DNA from: Actinomycetota bacterium
GTDB taxonomy: Bacteria; Actinomycetota; UBA4738; HRBIN12
DNA length: 64,000 nucleotides
Assembly: GCA_046724395.1 (NCBI GenBank)
Contig: JBKOWM010000020.1
Span: 12 to 64,011 of the forward strand
Direction of reading: 5' to 3'
Numbering within the stretch: position 1 is the first letter of the stretch; the number at the start of each line of letters is the position of its first letter. A program made the translations under genes and the position numbers. Below, piece by piece: positions 7,195 to 60,436 of the stretch. The notes beneath the pieces are model-generated. The model did no database searches, had not been told where the DNA came from, and saw nothing but the letters and a program-made list of their open reading frames with translations.

Positions 7195-8286
7195 CTACGA
7201 CCGCTTCTTCGCGAGCGCCGAGACGGCCTCCAACACGATCCGGTGCGCGAGCATCGCCGTCACGTCGGCGTTGTCGTACGGCGGCGAGACCTCGACGATA
7301 TCCATCCCGACGAGGTCGACGCGGCCGACGATCTGGCGCACCGCGCGGAGCATCTCGCGGGGCAGAATGCCGCCGGGCTCCGGCGTCCCCGTCCCCGGCG
7401 CTGTTCCCGGGTCCACGACGTCGATGTCGACCGAGAGATAAATGCAGTCGGGCCCGTCGAGGGCCTCCGCGATGGAGTCGGCGATGACCGCCTCCGACCC
7501 ACGCTCCTCGATCTCGACCATCGTGTGCCAGCGCAGGCCGCGCTCACGCATCCAGTCGAACGTCGCCCTCTCCGGCCAATAGCCGCGCAGGCCGATCTGC
7601 ACGAAGTTTCTGCCGTCGACCCAGCCCTCCTCGATCAGCCGGCGCATCGGCGTGCCGTGCGAGAGCAGTGACCCCCAGACGTCGTTGCCCGTATCGGCGT
7701 GCGCGTCGAAGTGGACGATGCCGACCGAGCGCGGATGCACGTGGCGCGCGACGGCCGCCGCCGACGGGTATGTGATCGAGTGGTCGCCGCCGAGGACGAG
7801 CGGCGTCGCCCCGGTTCCGGCGACGCGGTACACCTTTTCGTGGATGACGCGGTGCGCTCGCGCGAGCCGCGACGGAACGACGGGGGCATCGCCGGCGTCG
7901 ACGACCGTGACGTGCGCGAACGGCTCGATGTCGAGCTGGATCGACCACGCGTCGACGTTGGCCCAGTGATACGGCGCCCCGCGGATCGCGCGAGGACCGA
8001 AGCGCGCCCCCGGCCGCGCGCTCGTCCCGTCGTCGAGCGGGGCGCCGACGATCGCGACGTCGGCGTTCGCCGCTCGGATGGCCTCCTCGTCGATCGCCCA
8101 GGGCAGCTTGTGGAAGGAGCCCGTCCACCCCGTGTGATACGGAAGGTCTTCGGTCGCGAACTCGTCGAACTCATCCCCGGATGCAAGCTCGCTCCGCTCG
8201 ATGCGAAAGTCTCTTTGAGTCACGTCCGGCTCCGCTCCTGCGCCGATCGGCCCGCGAACCGTACCGGGCCCACCGGCCGCGGACAA
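7195..8286 (-). CDS. speB: agmatinase / ureohydrolase (arginase family)
   Basis: Mn-binding motifs 'GGDHSITYP', 'HFDAHADT', 'SVDIDVVDP'. Confidence 0.85.
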   Translation of the reverse strand: MSAAGGPGTVRGPIGAGAEPDVTQRDFRIERSELASGDEFDEFATEDLPYHTGWTGSFHKLPWAIDEEAIRAANADVAIVGAPLDDGTSARPGARFGPRAIRGAPYHWANVDAWSIQLDIEPFAHVTVVDAGDAPVVPSRLARAHRVIHEKVYRVAGTGATPLVLGGDHSITYPSAAAVARHVHPRSVGIVHFDAHADTGNDVWGSLLSHGTPMRRLIEEGWVDGRNFVQIGLRGYWPERATFDWMRERGLRWHTMVEIEERGSEAVIADSIAEALDGPDCIYLSVDIDVVDPGTAPGTGTPEPGGILPREMLRAVRQIVGRVDLVGMDIVEVSPPYDNADVTAMLAHRIVLEAVSALAKKRS

Positions 8287-53796: not shown

Positions 53797-54489
53797 GTGG
53801 GTCCCAGGACGTGGCGGAGCAGTGGACTTCTGTTGAACCTTGACGATGAGCGCCGGCGCTTCGAGCGCGCTCACGATCCCAGGCGCGTGATGGCCCTGTC
53901 GGACGGTGTGTTCGCGATCATCATCACGCTGCTTGTGCTCGAGATTCGGATCCCCGATCTTACGGACGGGAAGCGCCTCGCCGATGCGTTGCGGGAGATT
54001 CGGCCCTCGTTCGTCGCGTTCGTGATCAGCTTCCTTGTCGTCGCGATAGCATGGACGTCACACCGCGATCTGTTCTCCTTCGTTCGCCTCACGGACCGAA
54101 ATTTGGTGTGGCTAAACGTGCTCTACTTGCTACCGCTCACGCTGCTTCCGTTCGGTGCCGCCCTGATCTCTCGGTACGGTGACCAAACCGTCGCCCTGAC
54201 CCTGTACGGCGTGCTGTTGCTGGCAATCGCGCTAACCAGGCTTGTCATCTGGTTGTACGCGACCAACCGGCCGCAACTGCTGTTCGAGCCGATCGACCGG
54301 CGGTCGCGGAGGGTGGGCGTCTTGACGGTCGTTGTGCCTGCTGGGCTTTGTGTCGTGGCGATCCTGCTGGCGGGGACCGCGCCGACTGTGAGCCTGTCGA
54401 TCTACGCGGGCGTTCCCTTGCTGTACTTCGTGGTGCTGTTTCTCACCCGGGGCAATCCGGCGACGGCAGCCCAGCGCGAGCTGCCCTGA
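53797..54489 (+). CDS. TMEM175/DUF1211-family putative K+ channel
   Basis: 'RVMALSDGVFAIIITLLVLEIRIP' DUF1211 signature helix; 6 TM. GTG start. Confidence 0.75.
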   Translation: MGPRTWRSSGLLLNLDDERRRFERAHDPRRVMALSDGVFAIIITLLVLEIRIPDLTDGKRLADALREIRPSFVAFVISFLVVAIAWTSHRDLFSFVRLTDRNLVWLNVLYLLPLTLLPFGAALISRYGDQTVALTLYGVLLLAIALTRLVIWLYATNRPQLLFEPIDRRSRRVGVLTVVVPAGLCVVAILLAGTAPTVSLSIYAGVPLLYFVVLFLTRGNPATAAQRELP

Positions 54490-54531: not shown

Positions 54532-56196
54532 GTGAAGTGGCTGCTGCTGCGTCTCGGCCGGCCGGCGAGCGCCGTCCAGAGCGTCATACGCAACCGTGAT
54601 CTGCGACGCGCCGAGCTGGCGTTTCTCGCCTTCAACGTTGCGGAACCGGCAACATGGATCGCGATTCTCGTGTACGCCTTCGATCGTGGTGGCACGGCCG
54701 CGGCTGGCATCGTCACGCTGGTGCTGCTGGCGCCGGCGGCCGTCGTCGCCCCGATCGCCGCCGCGCTCGGCGATAGGCACTCGCGGAGACGCGTGGTCGC
54801 GATCGGTTACACGCTGCAGGCGGGGGCGACGGCCGCAACCGGGATCGCGATGGTTGCGGACGCGCCTGCGATCCTGGTGTACGCGGTTGCGACGATCGCG
54901 ATGGCGACGTACACAACCGGCCGTCCCGGTCACCACTCGCTGCTGCCAAAACTCGCCTCTTCGCCCGACGAGCTCGCGGCCGCAAACTCGGTTTCGTCGC
55001 TAGTCGAGGGATTGGGCGGCACCGCCGGAACGGCCGGCGTGGCCGTGCTTCTGGCGGCGACGTCCGTCGGCGTCGCATACCTCGTGATGGCCGCCATCCT
55101 CGGCCTCGGGGCGCTCCTCGCGTACGGCGTCCGGGTCGTGCACGACACGAGGCCCCCGAACCGCACGGTCGGTCCGTGGTCGTTCGCCGTCGACGCGGTG
55201 ACGGGGCTTCTCGCAATTGCCCGAGTGCGTGGAGCGGGCGCATTGCTGACCGTCGCAGCGGCGATGGCGCTCGTGTGGGGTACGTTCGACGTCCTCCTCG
55301 TGACGCTCGCGTTCGATCGCCTCGGGATCGGCGCGGCGGGTGTGGGCGCCCTTCACACCTCGATCGCGGTGGGCGTCCTGCTCGGCGCCGCAGGATCGGT
55401 CGCCTTGGTCGGGCGGTCTCGGATCTCACCGACGCTGCTCGGCGGCGCCGTCGTCATGGGTGCCAGCATCGCCGTACTCGGGTTCGGGGACACCGTCGCC
55501 GCTGCTGTGCTCGCGTCGGGCGTAGCCGGGGCGGCGACGACCGTGCTCGACGTCGCCGGGCGGACGTTGCTCCAACGCGCCATCGACGACTCGCTGCTCG
55601 CTCGCGTGTTCGGAGCGATCGAGTCGCTCTGGATGATCGGCTTCGGCGTCGGCGGACCGGTCGCGGCGGCGCTGGTATCGCTGTTTGGCCTCAGCGCTTC
55701 CTTCGTGGTCGCGTCCGCAGTCGTGCCTCTGATCACGCTGTTGGGGTTCCGCGCGCTCGACCGCCTGGAGCAACAGGTCGTCGTTCCGACCCGGCAACTC
55801 GAGCTCATCTCGGCGCTCCCGATGTTCGGACCTCTGCCGAAGAGCGACGTCGAACGCGTGGCGCGCCAGCTCGATCGGCTCAACGTCGTCCGTGGGACCG
55901 ACGTGATCCGGCAAGGTGATGTCGGCGACCGCTTCTACGTAGTCGACGCCGGCGCGTTCGAGGTCCTTACGGACGGCCGCTTCGTCGCGTCACTGTCGGA
56001 GGGCGATCACTTCGGCGAGATCGCGCTACTCAAGGATGTGCTGCGGACGGCGACGGTCCGCGCGACGGTGGACAGCACGGTGTGGGCGCTCGACCAGGAG
56101 GAATTCCTCGCGACGGTCACGGGGATGCCGCAGGCGAAAAGGGCTGCCCACGCGATCTCGGCGGAGCGCCTCCGCGCGAGTTCCCGACGTGAGTAG
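54532..56196 (+). CDS. MFS transporter fused to a C-terminal cyclic-nucleotide-binding domain
   Basis: About 12 TM; C-terminus 'ALPMFGPLPKSDVERVARQLDRLNVVRGTDVIRQGDVGDRFYVVDAGAFEV...GDHFGEIALLKDVLRTATVRA' is a CAP-type beta-roll. GTG 54532. Confidence 0.8.
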   Translation: MKWLLLRLGRPASAVQSVIRNRDLRRAELAFLAFNVAEPATWIAILVYAFDRGGTAAAGIVTLVLLAPAAVVAPIAAALGDRHSRRRVVAIGYTLQAGATAATGIAMVADAPAILVYAVATIAMATYTTGRPGHHSLLPKLASSPDELAAANSVSSLVEGLGGTAGTAGVAVLLAATSVGVAYLVMAAILGLGALLAYGVRVVHDTRPPNRTVGPWSFAVDAVTGLLAIARVRGAGALLTVAAAMALVWGTFDVLLVTLAFDRLGIGAAGVGALHTSIAVGVLLGAAGSVALVGRSRISPTLLGGAVVMGASIAVLGFGDTVAAAVLASGVAGAATTVLDVAGRTLLQRAIDDSLLARVFGAIESLWMIGFGVGGPVAAALVSLFGLSASFVVASAVVPLITLLGFRALDRLEQQVVVPTRQLELISALPMFGPLPKSDVERVARQLDRLNVVRGTDVIRQGDVGDRFYVVDAGAFEVLTDGRFVASLSEGDHFGEIALLKDVLRTATVRATVDSTVWALDQEEFLATVTGMPQAKRAAHAISAERLRASSRRE

Positions 56197-56239
56197 CGGT
56201 GAGTGGAGCCGATGTTCCGGAACCTGTCGCGCGGCCGAG

Positions 56240-57484
56240 GTGAACGAGTGGCGGCTCCGGATACCATCGCCTCCTGCCGTGGAGGAACGCTCGCGCCGTG
56301 AGGTGGCTCGAAGGGCCGGCGTCGACCTGGAGTACGTCGACCGATTGGTCGAGATCGGGATCCTGAAACCTGGCCCGAGGGATACGTTCTCGCCGGGTGA
56401 CGTTCGAAGGGCGCGCTGGGTTCGGAGCTTGGAGCGCGCCGGCGTTCCGCTGGACGAGATGGCCACCGCCGTCCGCCAACGACTTCTTTCGTTGTCCTTC
56501 CTGGACGTGCCCGTGTTCGATCGGTTCGCCGTACTCAGCGACACTACATTCGGCGAGCTGAGTGAACGCACGGGTGTTCCGTTGGAGCTGCTCGAGGTCG
56601 TCCGAGAGGCCGTCGGTTTCGCAGACCCCCAGCCTGGGGACCGCGTGCGCGAGGACGAGCTTTCCGTCGTCGAGGCGATCCAACTCCAGCTCTCGAACGG
56701 ATTCCGGCCCATCGCGATCGAACGGTGGCTCCGGGTCTGCGAAGACAGTCTTCGTCGAATCATCGAGACCGAGACGGATTGGTATGGGACCGAGGTGATC
56801 CGGCCCCTCCTGGAGTCAGGCATGACGGAGGCGGAGATGCTCGAGGCGCAGGCGGACGTGGGGTCCCGCGTCGCCCCCCTCACCGAGCAGGCGACGCTCG
56901 CCATCTACCACGGACAGCAGGAACACGCCTGGAGCAGGGCGTTGGTCGAGTACGTGGAGGGCGCGCTCGACAGGGCCGGGCTGCTCAAGCGGTTGCACCG
57001 TCCGCCGGCCATGGTCTTCCTCGACGTCACCGGGTACACGAGGCTGACGGAGGAGCGCGGAGACCAGGCTGCGGCGGACCTGGCGGCCAGGCTTGCGACG
57101 TTCGTCCGGCGCCGCGCACAGGAACACGGTGGCCAGCCGGTGAAGTGGCTCGGGGACGGCGTGATGTTCTACTTTCCGGACCCCGCCCAAGGCGTCATTG
57201 CCGCACTCGAGATGGTGGACGGCGTTGCGACGCGAGGCCTTCCACCCGCGCATGTCGGGATCCACGCCGGGCCGGTGGTCTTCCAGGAGGGGGACTACTT
57301 CGGCCGGACGGTGAACATCGCGGCGCGGATCGCCGACTACGCGAGACCGGGCGAGGTGCTGGTGAGCCAGGAAGTCGTCGACGCCGCCGCCGGAACGGCC
57401 GTGACGTTTACGGACATCGGGCCCGTCGAGTTAAAGGGCGTGTCGGGCCCCCTTCACCTTCAGACAGCTCATCGATCCTCGTGA
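56240..57484 (+). CDS. class III adenylate/guanylate cyclase with N-terminal MerR-like HTH region
   Basis: Cyclase motifs 'MVFLDVTGYTRLTE', 'VKWLGDGVMFYFP', 'GIHAGPVVFQEGDYFGRTVNIAARIA'. N-terminus 'EVARRAGVDLEYVDRLVEIGILKPG' is HTH-like. Start uncertain (GTG 56240 or 56279). Confidence 0.8.
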   Translation: MNEWRLRIPSPPAVEERSRREVARRAGVDLEYVDRLVEIGILKPGPRDTFSPGDVRRARWVRSLERAGVPLDEMATAVRQRLLSLSFLDVPVFDRFAVLSDTTFGELSERTGVPLELLEVVREAVGFADPQPGDRVREDELSVVEAIQLQLSNGFRPIAIERWLRVCEDSLRRIIETETDWYGTEVIRPLLESGMTEAEMLEAQADVGSRVAPLTEQATLAIYHGQQEHAWSRALVEYVEGALDRAGLLKRLHRPPAMVFLDVTGYTRLTEERGDQAAADLAARLATFVRRRAQEHGGQPVKWLGDGVMFYFPDPAQGVIAALEMVDGVATRGLPPAHVGIHAGPVVFQEGDYFGRTVNIAARIADYARPGEVLVSQEVVDAAAGTAVTFTDIGPVELKGVSGPLHLQTAHRSS

Positions 57485-57525
57485 TTCCGGTCCCGACGCC
57501 TCTCTCAGGGTGGGCTCGAGAGACG

Positions 57526-58209
57526 CTACGAGGTGTCGGCGTTTGCCAACAGCCCTAGTTCTGCAGCGTAGCCGTCGAGGCGGTCCGCCAACTCCTTCGG
57601 GCGGCTGAGTGCGGGCGTGTGACCGCCGTCGATCTCGTCCGGCGTCATCCCCAGACGCTCGCGCGCGACCCTTCGAACGAAGGGAGCGGGGAGCAGGCGG
57701 TCATCGCGACAGAGGATGACTCTCGTCGGGACGGTCGGCCAGGCTTTCAACGGCGATCGCTCCCCCATCCGCGTCTCAGACTGCCTACGTCCACGCTTCA
57801 AGGCCTCCGCCGCAAGCGCTCTCGGGACGTCTTGGTAGAACAGGGCGATCTCATCGTCGTAGTGTTCGCGCGCCTCCTCGTCGTATCCGGTGTTCGCCCA
57901 ATAATCGGCGGGGGCCTCGCCGGGAGCCGGAATCATCGGTGCGACAAGGACGAGCAGCTCGACCGGCACCCGCTCGCACACGAGCGGCGCCGTGAAGCCG
58001 CCCAGCGACTGGGCCACGACGACCACACCGGTCCGAGAACCGATCGCGTCGACGACGGCGTCTGTGTATTCGGGGAGTCCGGCCGCGTCATCGTCACATG
58101 GAAGGTTGGGCGCGACGGTGTCGTGGCCTCGTGCACGCAGCTCGCTTTCGACAAGACGCCAGTACCAGCCGACGTCGCCGGCGCCGTGGATCAAGACGAA
58201 GGCGGCCAT
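57526..58209 (-). CDS. alpha/beta hydrolase
   Basis: SD 'AAGGAGGG' 6 nt before ATG 58209. 'FVLIHGAG', nucleophile elbow 'VAQSLGG'. The long upstream ORF-track extension is discounted. Confidence 0.75.
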   Translation of the reverse strand: MAAFVLIHGAGDVGWYWRLVESELRARGHDTVAPNLPCDDDAAGLPEYTDAVVDAIGSRTGVVVVAQSLGGFTAPLVCERVPVELLVLVAPMIPAPGEAPADYWANTGYDEEAREHYDDEIALFYQDVPRALAAEALKRGRRQSETRMGERSPLKAWPTVPTRVILCRDDRLLPAPFVRRVARERLGMTPDEIDGGHTPALSRPKELADRLDGYAAELGLLANADTS

Positions 58210-58271
58210 CTCTCGCCCTCCTTTTGGGTCCGGCCGCTTCGACCCCGTCCGCCATCGGCCGGAAGACGTCC

Positions 58272-59054
58272 TCAGCCCCGTCGCGGATCTGCGACGTTGG
58301 ATCTTTTTCGTCGGCTTTCGTCGGCGGGCCTGCCCTCCTTGTACGCGGCCATCAGCTCCCTCTTGCGACGGTCGTCCAGATACTTCACAGCCTCGCGCAT
58401 CGTCACGCCGGACGCGCGATGCGTCCGCGGCGCGAGCCACTGGTACACCTCGTCGGGGCGGCGTTTGCCCGTCTCGCGCAGCACCCACCCGATGGCCTTG
58501 CGGATGAAAAACTCCTTCTCGTCGAGCATCGCGTCGGCGTGGGAGGCGAAGCGGCCGAAGCTCGCACCGTCCTTCAGCGGGAGGAGTTCCGCCAGCAACG
58601 CCGAACGGCGCACCCAGAAGTCCTCGTCCTTGGCCCAGCGATCGAGCCGATCCGCGGCCCCTGGGTTCCGAAGGACGACCGCGCCTGCCACGTCGCCGCT
58701 CAGCACGTCGACGAGCGCCCACGTCTTCGACTCACGGATGAGCCGCTCGATCAGGTCGAGGTCGGCCGGCTTCAGCAGTCGTGCGTGCTCTTCAAGCAGC
58801 ATCACGGCGGCCATCCGCCGCTCGAACACCGGTTCCGACCACAAAGAAGCCACCAGGGAAACGATGTGGTCGTGGGATAGATCCGGGTGCCGCCCGGCGA
58901 AGGACTTCATGACGCTGCGGATTCCCCACACGGAGACGCCGAGGAACTCGAGATCGCTCTTCAGGTAGCGCTTCTCGCCCTCGGCGCGCTCCGGCGTTCC
59001 GAGGGCACGCAGTTCCTGCTCCAGCTCGTCGGCCGCCTCAGTCACGAAGAACAT
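58272..59054 (-). CDS. DNA alkylation repair protein (AlkD/AlkC HEAT-like family)
   Basis: 'YLKSDLEFLGVSVWGIRSV', 'RRMAAVMLLEEH', 'WALVDVLSGDVAG', 'FFIRKAIGWVLRE' match the DNA_alkylation family pattern. Confidence 0.7.
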   Translation of the reverse strand: MFFVTEAADELEQELRALGTPERAEGEKRYLKSDLEFLGVSVWGIRSVMKSFAGRHPDLSHDHIVSLVASLWSEPVFERRMAAVMLLEEHARLLKPADLDLIERLIRESKTWALVDVLSGDVAGAVVLRNPGAADRLDRWAKDEDFWVRRSALLAELLPLKDGASFGRFASHADAMLDEKEFFIRKAIGWVLRETGKRRPDEVYQWLAPRTHRASGVTMREAVKYLDDRRKRELMAAYKEGRPADESRRKRSNVADPRRG

Positions 59055-59121
59055 GAGCGACGAGGGTAGTCGGCTCGAGGCGATTTGGGAGGACGCGCAA
59101 GGAGTTCCTCCCGCCAACTCC

Positions 59122-60102
59122 TCATCGCGGATGTCCGAGGACATCCGGGTTCACGACGTTGGTCGGCTTTCCTGCCGCGTAGGCATTGATCTGATCGAAC
59201 ACGTCGGAGAACTGCACGTCGAACTCGTCCTTCGTCACGTACCCGATGTGCGGCGTAACGACGACGCTGCTCATCTGCAACAGCGGATGTGACGTGTCGC
59301 GAAGCGGTTCCTCGTCGAAGACGTCGACGGCAGCCATGCCGGGCCGGCCCGCCTGCAGGGCCGAGACCAGCGCGCCGGCTTCGATGAGCGCCGCACGGCT
59401 CGTGTTCACGAGAAGCGCCGTCGGCTTCATGCGAGCGAGGTCCGAGGCCTTGATGATCCCTCGCGTCGCCGGTACTAGACGCATATGAATTGACAACACA
59501 TCGCATGCTTCGAAGAACGAGGCCTTGCTCTCGGCAGATTCGTAGCCATCGGTCTGCGCCCTCGCGAGCGACGTCTCCCGGCCCCAGACGACGACGCGCA
59601 TCCCAAAGGCTCGGCCGTACCCGGCGACGACGGCACCGATCCGGCCGTAGCCGTAGATGCCAAGAGACTTGCCGTAAAGCGAGTCCCCGACGCCCATCTG
59701 CCACTCACCTGCACGCAGGGACGCCGCCTGCTGCGGAATCTGTCGCATCGCCGCGAGGACGAGGCCCCACGTGAGCTCGGCCGTTGCGTGCGACGGCGTG
59801 TCCGAGTGCAGATCGGATGAGACGATGATTCCGAGCCGCGTGCACGCGTCGAGGTCGATGTGAGGATAGACGCTCCGCTGGCTGATCAGTCGCAGCGTCG
59901 GCAGCCGCTCGAGCAGTGGCGCGCGTATCCGCGTCCGCTCCCGTATGAGCACGAGCGCCTCGCATCTTTGTAGTCGGTCGGTCAGGACGTCGACGTCCTC
60001 GACGTGGTCGTTCCACACCGTAACCTCGTGTTCCGCGAGTTTTTCGAAGCACGGCAACCCGCGGAGTGTGTCGAACCAGTCGTCGAGGATCGTTACCTTC
60101 AT
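59122..60102 (-). CDS. D-isomer-specific 2-hydroxyacid dehydrogenase
   Basis: NAD fold '[14 protein letters not shown]', catalytic '[10 protein letters not shown]', 'VTPHIGY'. Confidence 0.8.
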
Positions 60103-60436
60103 ACGCCCCATCGTCTCATTGGGATGCAGACGTCGTTGCGGTGCGGCTTCCTTCGATGACCACGTCTCAACGTGACAACCAGTACAGGCTGATGCCCAGG
60201 ATCCTCAGATGAATGGCCTGGTCGGTCACGATCACTCCCCAAGACGCCATCGCGAAGTTCTGCTTCCAGCGGAGCTGAGCAGCAGTCGCGTCGGCCATCT
60301 CCGGTCGACGATCGCATGGGTGCTGCCGAGATCCCGAGGAACCACACCGCACGCAGGTCATGCCACACCGGGAGAACGAGAAGAGCCAACGTCAGATGGT
60401 AGGTGAGGACGTGAACGAGGGAGAAGCCAGCGCCGG

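Follow-up and report, generated by a model that had tools for sequence, protein, structure and literature searches.

Does an actinobacterial adenylyl cyclase with a helix-turn-helix (HTH)-like N-terminus carry a DNA-binding head, or does that segment belong to the machinery that regulates the cyclase? The question arises from a gene (Table 1) in a 64,000-nucleotide (nt) window, by which we mean the whole stretch analysed (positions 12 to 64,011 of contig JBKOWM010000020.1, GenBank assembly GCA_046724395.1), from an Actinomycetota bacterium. A first-pass annotation had described its product as an adenylyl cyclase tethered to a putative DNA- or effector-binding module with a MerR-type HTH. The MerR-like segment of that description stood up to profile analysis; the separate DNA-binding module did not, as the segment is the first repeat (hereinafter repeat 1) of a known, Rv1264-type regulatory domain. 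The reading that we favor, with a probability of roughly 0.7, is that the gene encodes an Rv1264/Rv2212-type class III adenylyl cyclase that is soluble and homodimeric and in which the MerR-like repeat 1 would have a structural, dimerization or sensing role, and the signal would be pH and/or a fatty acid. Residue numbers throughout are those of the 401-amino acid (aa) protein starting at GTG 56279, unless the 414-aa reading starting at GTG 56240 is named.

Homology of the N-terminal segment to the MerR winged helix-turn-helix

The HTH-like segment, EVARRAGVDLEYVDRLVEIGIL, spans residues 8-29 (nt 56300-56365). With the window protein alone as query, the Pfam model MerR_1 scored 18.5 bits against a cut-off of 21.6 (E = 0.002; residues 20-78 of the 414-aa reading). 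A profile of 84 diverse N-termini of the family, searched against the PDB, recovered Tn501 MerR (E = 1.4e-5), TipAN (E = 1.8e-4) and the Listeria MerR-family protein 3gp4 (E = 4.6e-4), followed by weaker matches to the C-terminal domain of Rv1828 (E = 2.8e-3) and to SoxR (E = 0.035). The MerR-family matches of this profile cover the entire winged-helix unit, and 32 of the 84 N-termini individually matched MerR_1 at E <= 0.01 (best 4e-8). By the family profile, and by the predicted fold that agrees with it, repeat 1 is homologous to the MerR winged HTH, in keeping with the MerR-type N-terminus proposed in the first-pass annotation.

An Rv1264-type regulatory domain with two MerR-like repeats

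Repeat 1 is continuous with a regulatory region of recognizable type. The Pfam family Ad_Cy_reg (PF16701) was matched with 40.2 bits against a cut-off of 28.6 (E = 4e-10; residues 57-215 of the 414-aa reading), collinear with the catalytic domain, and the best solved relative is the Rv1264 holoenzyme (PDB: 1y10/1y11; E = 2e-23, residues 103-411 of the 414-aa reading). Profile-profile alignment with hhalign of residues 1-72 against residues 86-158 (repeat 2) revealed an internal repeat (probability 85.7%, E = 5.4e-6; in a second run 89.2%, E = 2.2e-6), so that the regulatory domain can be read as two tandem MerR-like repeats followed by the long helices 144-179 and 184-232; the helical repeats that the first-pass annotation had placed after the HTH are thus borne out as a helical region containing an internal repeat. 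The segment of Rv1264 aligned to repeat 2 is SAREISENYGVDLELL... Searched against the PDB, the repeat-2 profile gave no direct MerR match and retrieved Rv1264 alone; its link to MerR therefore runs transitively through the match between the two repeats. On these profile comparisons, a tandemly duplicated MerR-type winged helix seems to make up the Rv1264 regulatory domain.

AlphaFold2 (AF2) models place both repeats in a single unit. The predicted local distance difference test (pLDDT) score is 88.8 for the full-length model and 91.4 for the model of residues 1-240, and repeat 1 is modeled at pLDDT 91-96 inside a 240-residue unit with a predicted template modeling (TM) score of 0.79. Two short helices come after helix 4 (58-66), and the second MerR-like repeat comes after those. 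Foldseek matched the full-length model to the inhibited form of Rv1264 (1y10) at E = 5e-23 (TM scores 0.60/0.67), and the query-normalized TM score (TMq) was higher for inhibited 1y10 (0.60) than for active 1y11 (0.40). From the model we take helix 184-232 to be the probable counterpart of the Rv1264 switch helix, here one continuous helix. In the family alignment, mean column identity is 52% for repeat 1 and 54% for the rest, and precomputed Pfam matches on homologues read Rv1828_C + Ad_Cy_reg + Guanylate_cyc. Hence the N-terminal 240 residues are one compact, all-helical Rv1264-type regulatory domain, with no separate bolted-on module. No stand-alone regulatory domains and no other output domains were found among the matches to the regulatory region; the short matches end in frameshift-like or contig-end sequence, and the one long match (P0182, 690 aa) still has a C-terminus of the cyclase family.

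The catalytic domain

The C-terminal region matched the Pfam family Guanylate_cyc with 46 bits against a cut-off of 21.9 (E = 6e-12; residues 257-400 of the 414-aa reading), and solved class III cyclases were recovered at E = 1e-19 to 1e-11. The PDB matches include Rv1264, Rv1900c and Ma1120. All six canonical class III residues are kept, each aligned with its Rv1264 counterpart: the metal-binding D249 (nt 57023-57025) and D293 (nt 57155-57157), the substrate (adenine) pair K289/D339, and the transition-state pair N346/R350. The first-pass annotation had called the core intact from the strings FLDVTGYT and GDGVMFYFP; both are present and hold the first and the second metal-binding Asp, respectively. 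Across 22 diverse relatives, with identity as low as 42%, conservation of the six residues is complete or no less than 90%. The Lys/Asp pair points to ATP as the substrate, and the C-terminal domain, being catalytically competent at the level of its residues, is predicted to make cyclic AMP (cAMP), with active sites that would form, as in other class III cyclases, in a head-to-tail dimer.

Start codon and upstream region

Whether the HTH-like segment lies at the N-terminus, or is translated at all, depends on the start codon, which the first-pass annotation had left ambiguous between GTG 56240 and GTG 56279. Both are in frame with the TGA stop at 57482-57484 on the + strand, and the 414-aa form is the one predicted for this contig by database gene callers (P0001). 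Comparison with homologues settles the choice on the second. In the protein database the homologues are mostly 401 aa long with the N-terminus M-E-E-x-S, and those with an ATG start begin MEE.S..EVARRAGVD at the position of GTG 56279. Across 82 orthologous loci the codon at the aligned position is GTG in 71, ATG in 8, TTG in 2 and CTG in 1, that is, a start codon in 81. When the window was compared with these loci, codons 4-29, which encode the HTH, showed a third-position excess of substitutions (330/380/824 by codon position) at a divergence of about 24%, whereas nt 56240-56278 showed no periodicity (759/760/668) and about 68% divergence. In addition, a conserved -10-like element falls inside the putative 5′ extension. 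Taken together, the homologue N-termini, the codon-position statistics and this element establish a 401-aa protein with the HTH-like segment translated at its extreme N-terminus: the cyclase starts at GTG 56279, upstream of the HTH-like segment and not downstream of it, as the first-pass annotation had allowed. Translation from GTG 56240, or from a codon beyond the HTH, which would leave the segment internal or untranslated, is hardly credible against this evidence.

The -10-like element has the form TANNNT and was recognized solely through comparison of the 82 loci. It occurs 6-12 nt 5′ of the start in 72 of them, most often as TACGAT; at control offsets the pattern was present in 0-2 of the 82 loci, and shuffled sequences gave 2.7 on average and never more than 8. 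Semi-conserved letters flank it across loci L001-L082, CTCCGGC before the hexamer and CG after it. No Shine-Dalgarno sequence was seen ahead of the cyclase start, the 72 promoters anchored on the element contain no conserved -35 and no conserved dyad upstream of it, and a consensus scan of 55800-57800 for sigma-70 promoters and terminators found nothing. The conserved position of the element suggests that it drives a leaderless or very short-leader mRNA. We also considered the block CTCCGGC-TACGAT-CG as a palindrome and rejected that reading, because its pattern of invariance, T-A-N-N-N-T, fits a -10 hexamer; the self-complementary part is the 6-bp CGATCG alone.

Table 1. Features of the adenylyl cyclase locus (window coordinates; residue ranges refer to the 401-aa protein).
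Feature	Coordinates	Strand	Details
Adenylyl cyclase coding sequence	56279..57484	+	401 aa; GTG start; TGA stop included
-10-like hexamer TACCAT (TANNNT)	56262..56267	+	11 nt 5′ of GTG 56279 and 3′ of GTG 56240; comparative; putative function
Repeat 1, MerR-like winged helix	56288..56482	+	residues 4-68: strand, helices 6-13 and 17-25 (HTH), shortened wing, helices 39-53 and 58-66
Ad_Cy_reg (PF16701) match, Rv1264-type regulatory domain	56408..56884	+	residues 44-202
Repeat 2, second MerR-like unit	56534..56752	+	residues 86-158; includes TFGELSERTGVPLELLEVVREAVGF; start of the Ad_Cy_reg domain
Long helix linking regulatory and catalytic domains	56828..56974	+	residues 184-232; AF2 secondary structure
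Class III cyclase catalytic domain	57008..57475	+	residues 244-399; D249, K289, D293, D339, N346, R350

Regulatory element or DNA-binding head

Homology to MerR raises the possibility that repeat 1 functions as a DNA-binding winged helix, which would make the protein a one-component system coupling DNA occupancy and cAMP synthesis, either as a transcription factor with a cyclase effector domain or as a cyclase anchored at particular chromosomal sites that regulate it. The homology to the MerR DNA-binding domain is genuine across the HTH, the wing and helices 3-4, and in these two helices a basic pattern of the MerR kind is retained, DVxRxRxV[KR]S..R.G..LDE, compatible with DNA contact; R12, R22, R43 and R44, along with the basic R46, are conserved, and in the window protein the net charge over repeat 1 is +4. 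These points weigh against a purely regulatory role. The family as a whole differs in charge, repeat 1 being net negative in most members (median -2), but net charge proved unusable as a discriminator, as the DNA-binding TipAN is itself net negative in the aligned stretch by our own count, which again takes something from the reading that we favor. Features at the DNA-contacting surface point the other way: in every alignment to MerR-family DNA-binding domains the wing of repeat 1 is shorter by 5 residues, the recognition-helix positions R/H-F/H/Y-Y of MerR, TipA and 3gp4 become D-R-L in the family consensus, and V24 is hydrophobic at a position that is polar in these three proteins. The model, moreover, contains neither the long antiparallel coiled-coil dimerization helix of MerR-type proteins nor an effector-binding region directly after helix 4, where a second repeat follows instead. 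MerR-family regulators bind a dyad operator in promoters with a long -35/-10 spacer; no conserved palindrome was found upstream of 72 orthologues, the genes around the cyclase vary from locus to locus, the segment is confidently modeled as part of the regulatory domain, and the closest characterized relative works without the HTH segment. The closest folds include CbpM, DafA and the C-terminal domain of Rv1828, all MerR-fold domains for which no role in DNA binding is known. On this balance of profile and model evidence DNA binding by repeat 1 is disfavored, and we regard a one-component regulator of this kind as unlikely. A related evolutionary scenario, which we judge quite unlikely, is that the Rv1264-type regulatory domain arose from a two-unit MerR/FtsR-like transcription factor and that in the soil-actinobacterial clade the first unit still binds DNA, giving a DNA-bound cyclase or a bifunctional regulator in which cAMP output and DNA occupancy influence each other.

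As the first of two tandem repeats that form the regulatory domain, repeat 1 is better read as a structural, dimerization or sensing element than as a DNA-binding head. Under this preferred reading, repeat 1 would be part of the sensor and of the dimer scaffold; the regulatory domain would, as in Rv1264, keep the two catalytic domains unproductively arranged until a rearrangement of the long connecting helix released them for activation. The signal, by analogy with the relatives, would be acidic pH and/or a bound unsaturated fatty acid. We infer autoinhibition and the nature of the signal from these relatives, and the absence of DNA binding from the comparisons above; that the model adopts the geometry of the inhibited state is a hint of autoinhibition. 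Two further points count against the proposal: regulation by pH or lipid is extrapolated from a relative only 27% identical over the structural alignment, and the HTH part of repeat 1 is absent from Rv1264, so the solved structures cannot reveal its role. Repeat 1 might, like the MerR-fold proteins CbpM and DafA and the dimerizing Rv1828 C-terminal domain, be instead a protein-protein module that recruits a partner controlling the cyclase in place of pH or lipid sensing. We consider this very unlikely, since no conserved neighboring gene points to a partner and the confident joint modeling of the two repeats suggests that the role of repeat 1 is intramolecular. Binding of DNA or of a partner by repeat 1, if real, would give a well-studied mechanism of autoinhibition a new input.

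Phyletic distribution and gene neighborhood

The domain arrangement had been thought uncommon in the first-pass annotation; the searches contradict this. All 8000 of the 8000 candidates scored in a protein database clustered at 90% identity were significant matches, a lower bound that puts the related protein clusters at 8000 or more. The regulatory region alone was found in 1112 clusters at 50% identity (E <= 0.001), and 275 or more species-level genomes contain relatives; those listed, 80 in number, are nearly all metagenome-assembled genomes of uncultured Actinomycetota/Acidimicrobiia from soil, with a few Acidobacteriota. Together with the precomputed Pfam matches, these counts mark the arrangement as common and already catalogued. 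In the literature searched, we found no paper linking the Rv1264 regulatory domain to a duplicated MerR-type fold with a complete first copy. For annotation, the start should be moved to 56279 and the product named an adenylyl cyclase of the Rv1264 family, of the pH-/lipid-regulated type, and not a DNA-binding cyclase.

Upstream of the cyclase, on the same strand, lies a gene (54532-56196, +) for a 554-aa transporter of the major facilitator superfamily (MFS) with a C-terminal cyclic-nucleotide-binding domain, ending 82 nt 5′ of the cyclase start; it could be a cAMP-gated transporter beside a source of cAMP. As a conserved operon partner this gene was rejected: it, or any match to a cyclic-nucleotide-binding domain, stands beside the cyclase in 1 of the 82 loci. 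Other window neighbors recur near the cyclase in 0-2 of the 82, and the neighbors at loci L001 and L002 are unrelated. Just 5′ of the transporter gene and on the same strand, 53797-54489 (+) encodes a homologue of TMEM175-type potassium channels (Pfam E = 1.3e-26). On the opposite strand follow genes for an alpha/beta hydrolase (57526-58290, -), a DNA alkylation repair protein (58272-59144, -) and a D-2-hydroxyacid dehydrogenase (59122-60111, -); the open reading frame called at 57526-58722 probably reaches too far in the 5′ direction, given that the shorter reading enters the hydrolase domain near its codon 31. At L001, on another metagenomic contig, a LipJ-like fusion of an alpha/beta hydrolase and a cyclase (1348-2691, -) is encoded 3.3 kb from the orthologous cyclase. 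Several class III cyclases seem to be present in these genomes.

Comparison with known systems

Class III cyclases with an HTH on the same polypeptide are familiar from mycobacteria in the form of Rv0386, Rv1358 and Rv2488c, in which the HTH is C-terminal and of the LuxR type. Their order is thus the reverse of that described here (cyclase, ATPase/tetratricopeptide repeat region, LuxR HTH), their HTH belongs to an unrelated family, and they contain no Ad_Cy_reg. The MerR-family regulators (MerR, SoxR, TipA, BmrR, CueR) share with the present protein, by profile and predicted fold, the strand, HTH, wing and two-helix unit of repeat 1. They differ from it in that the present protein has the 5-residue-shorter wing, replacements of the recognition-helix R/Y and a MerR_1 score below the cut-off, and lacks both a directly following coiled-coil dimerization helix and a C-terminal effector domain.

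Outside the cyclases, the Rv1264 regulatory domain has its closest relative by sequence in the C-terminal domain of FtsR/Rv1828, the actinobacterial MerR-type regulator of ftsZ (5ydc, 5ydd; Rv1828_C). The FtsR NCBIfam model reached 28.4 bits against a cut-off of 150, with profile positions 105-162 of 223, in its C-terminal half, falling on repeat 1. FtsR/Rv1828 itself contains no cyclase and is a DNA-binding regulator that acts via its own N-terminal HTH (PMC6683498).

Likened to the present protein through its published description, the fatty-acid-activated Rv2212 of Mycobacterium tuberculosis offers a plausible model for the signal. It is reported to be related to Rv1264 and to be activated up to eight-fold by oleic acid above 50 uM, and oleic acid is reported as bound in Rv1264 (PMC12505454). 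An autoinhibitory N-terminal domain is attributed to Rv1264 in the reference list of PMC3961136.

The closest parallel is Rv1264 itself, the pH-sensing adenylyl cyclase of M. tuberculosis (1y10, 1y11, 2ev1-2ev4). It shares Ad_Cy_reg, the long connecting helix and the class III domain with the same six catalytic residues, in a collinear similarity of about 310 residues, and it is on its inhibited state that the model superposes best; identity is about 27% over the structural alignment. In place of the strand, the two helices and the wing of repeat 1, Rv1264 has about 22 acidic residues, and in a weak alignment the equivalent of helices 3-4 alone is kept. The repeat-1 profile finds neither Rv1264 nor any of 120 listed orthologues, even with the threshold relaxed to E <= 10; PF16701 is found in all 120 and PF00211 in all but one, Rv1828_C and MerR_1 in none. 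Residues 12-22 of the acidic tail of Rv1264 (P0272), NIDDLLGDLGG, loosely resemble by eye the motif of the second HTH helix in the present family, YVDRLVELGIL, and by this resemblance the tail may be a relic of a lost repeat-1 HTH. The interest of the locus is thus chiefly evolutionary: an abundant clade of soil Actinomycetota keeps repeat 1 complete, whereas the crystallized Rv1264 appears to have lost its HTH part.
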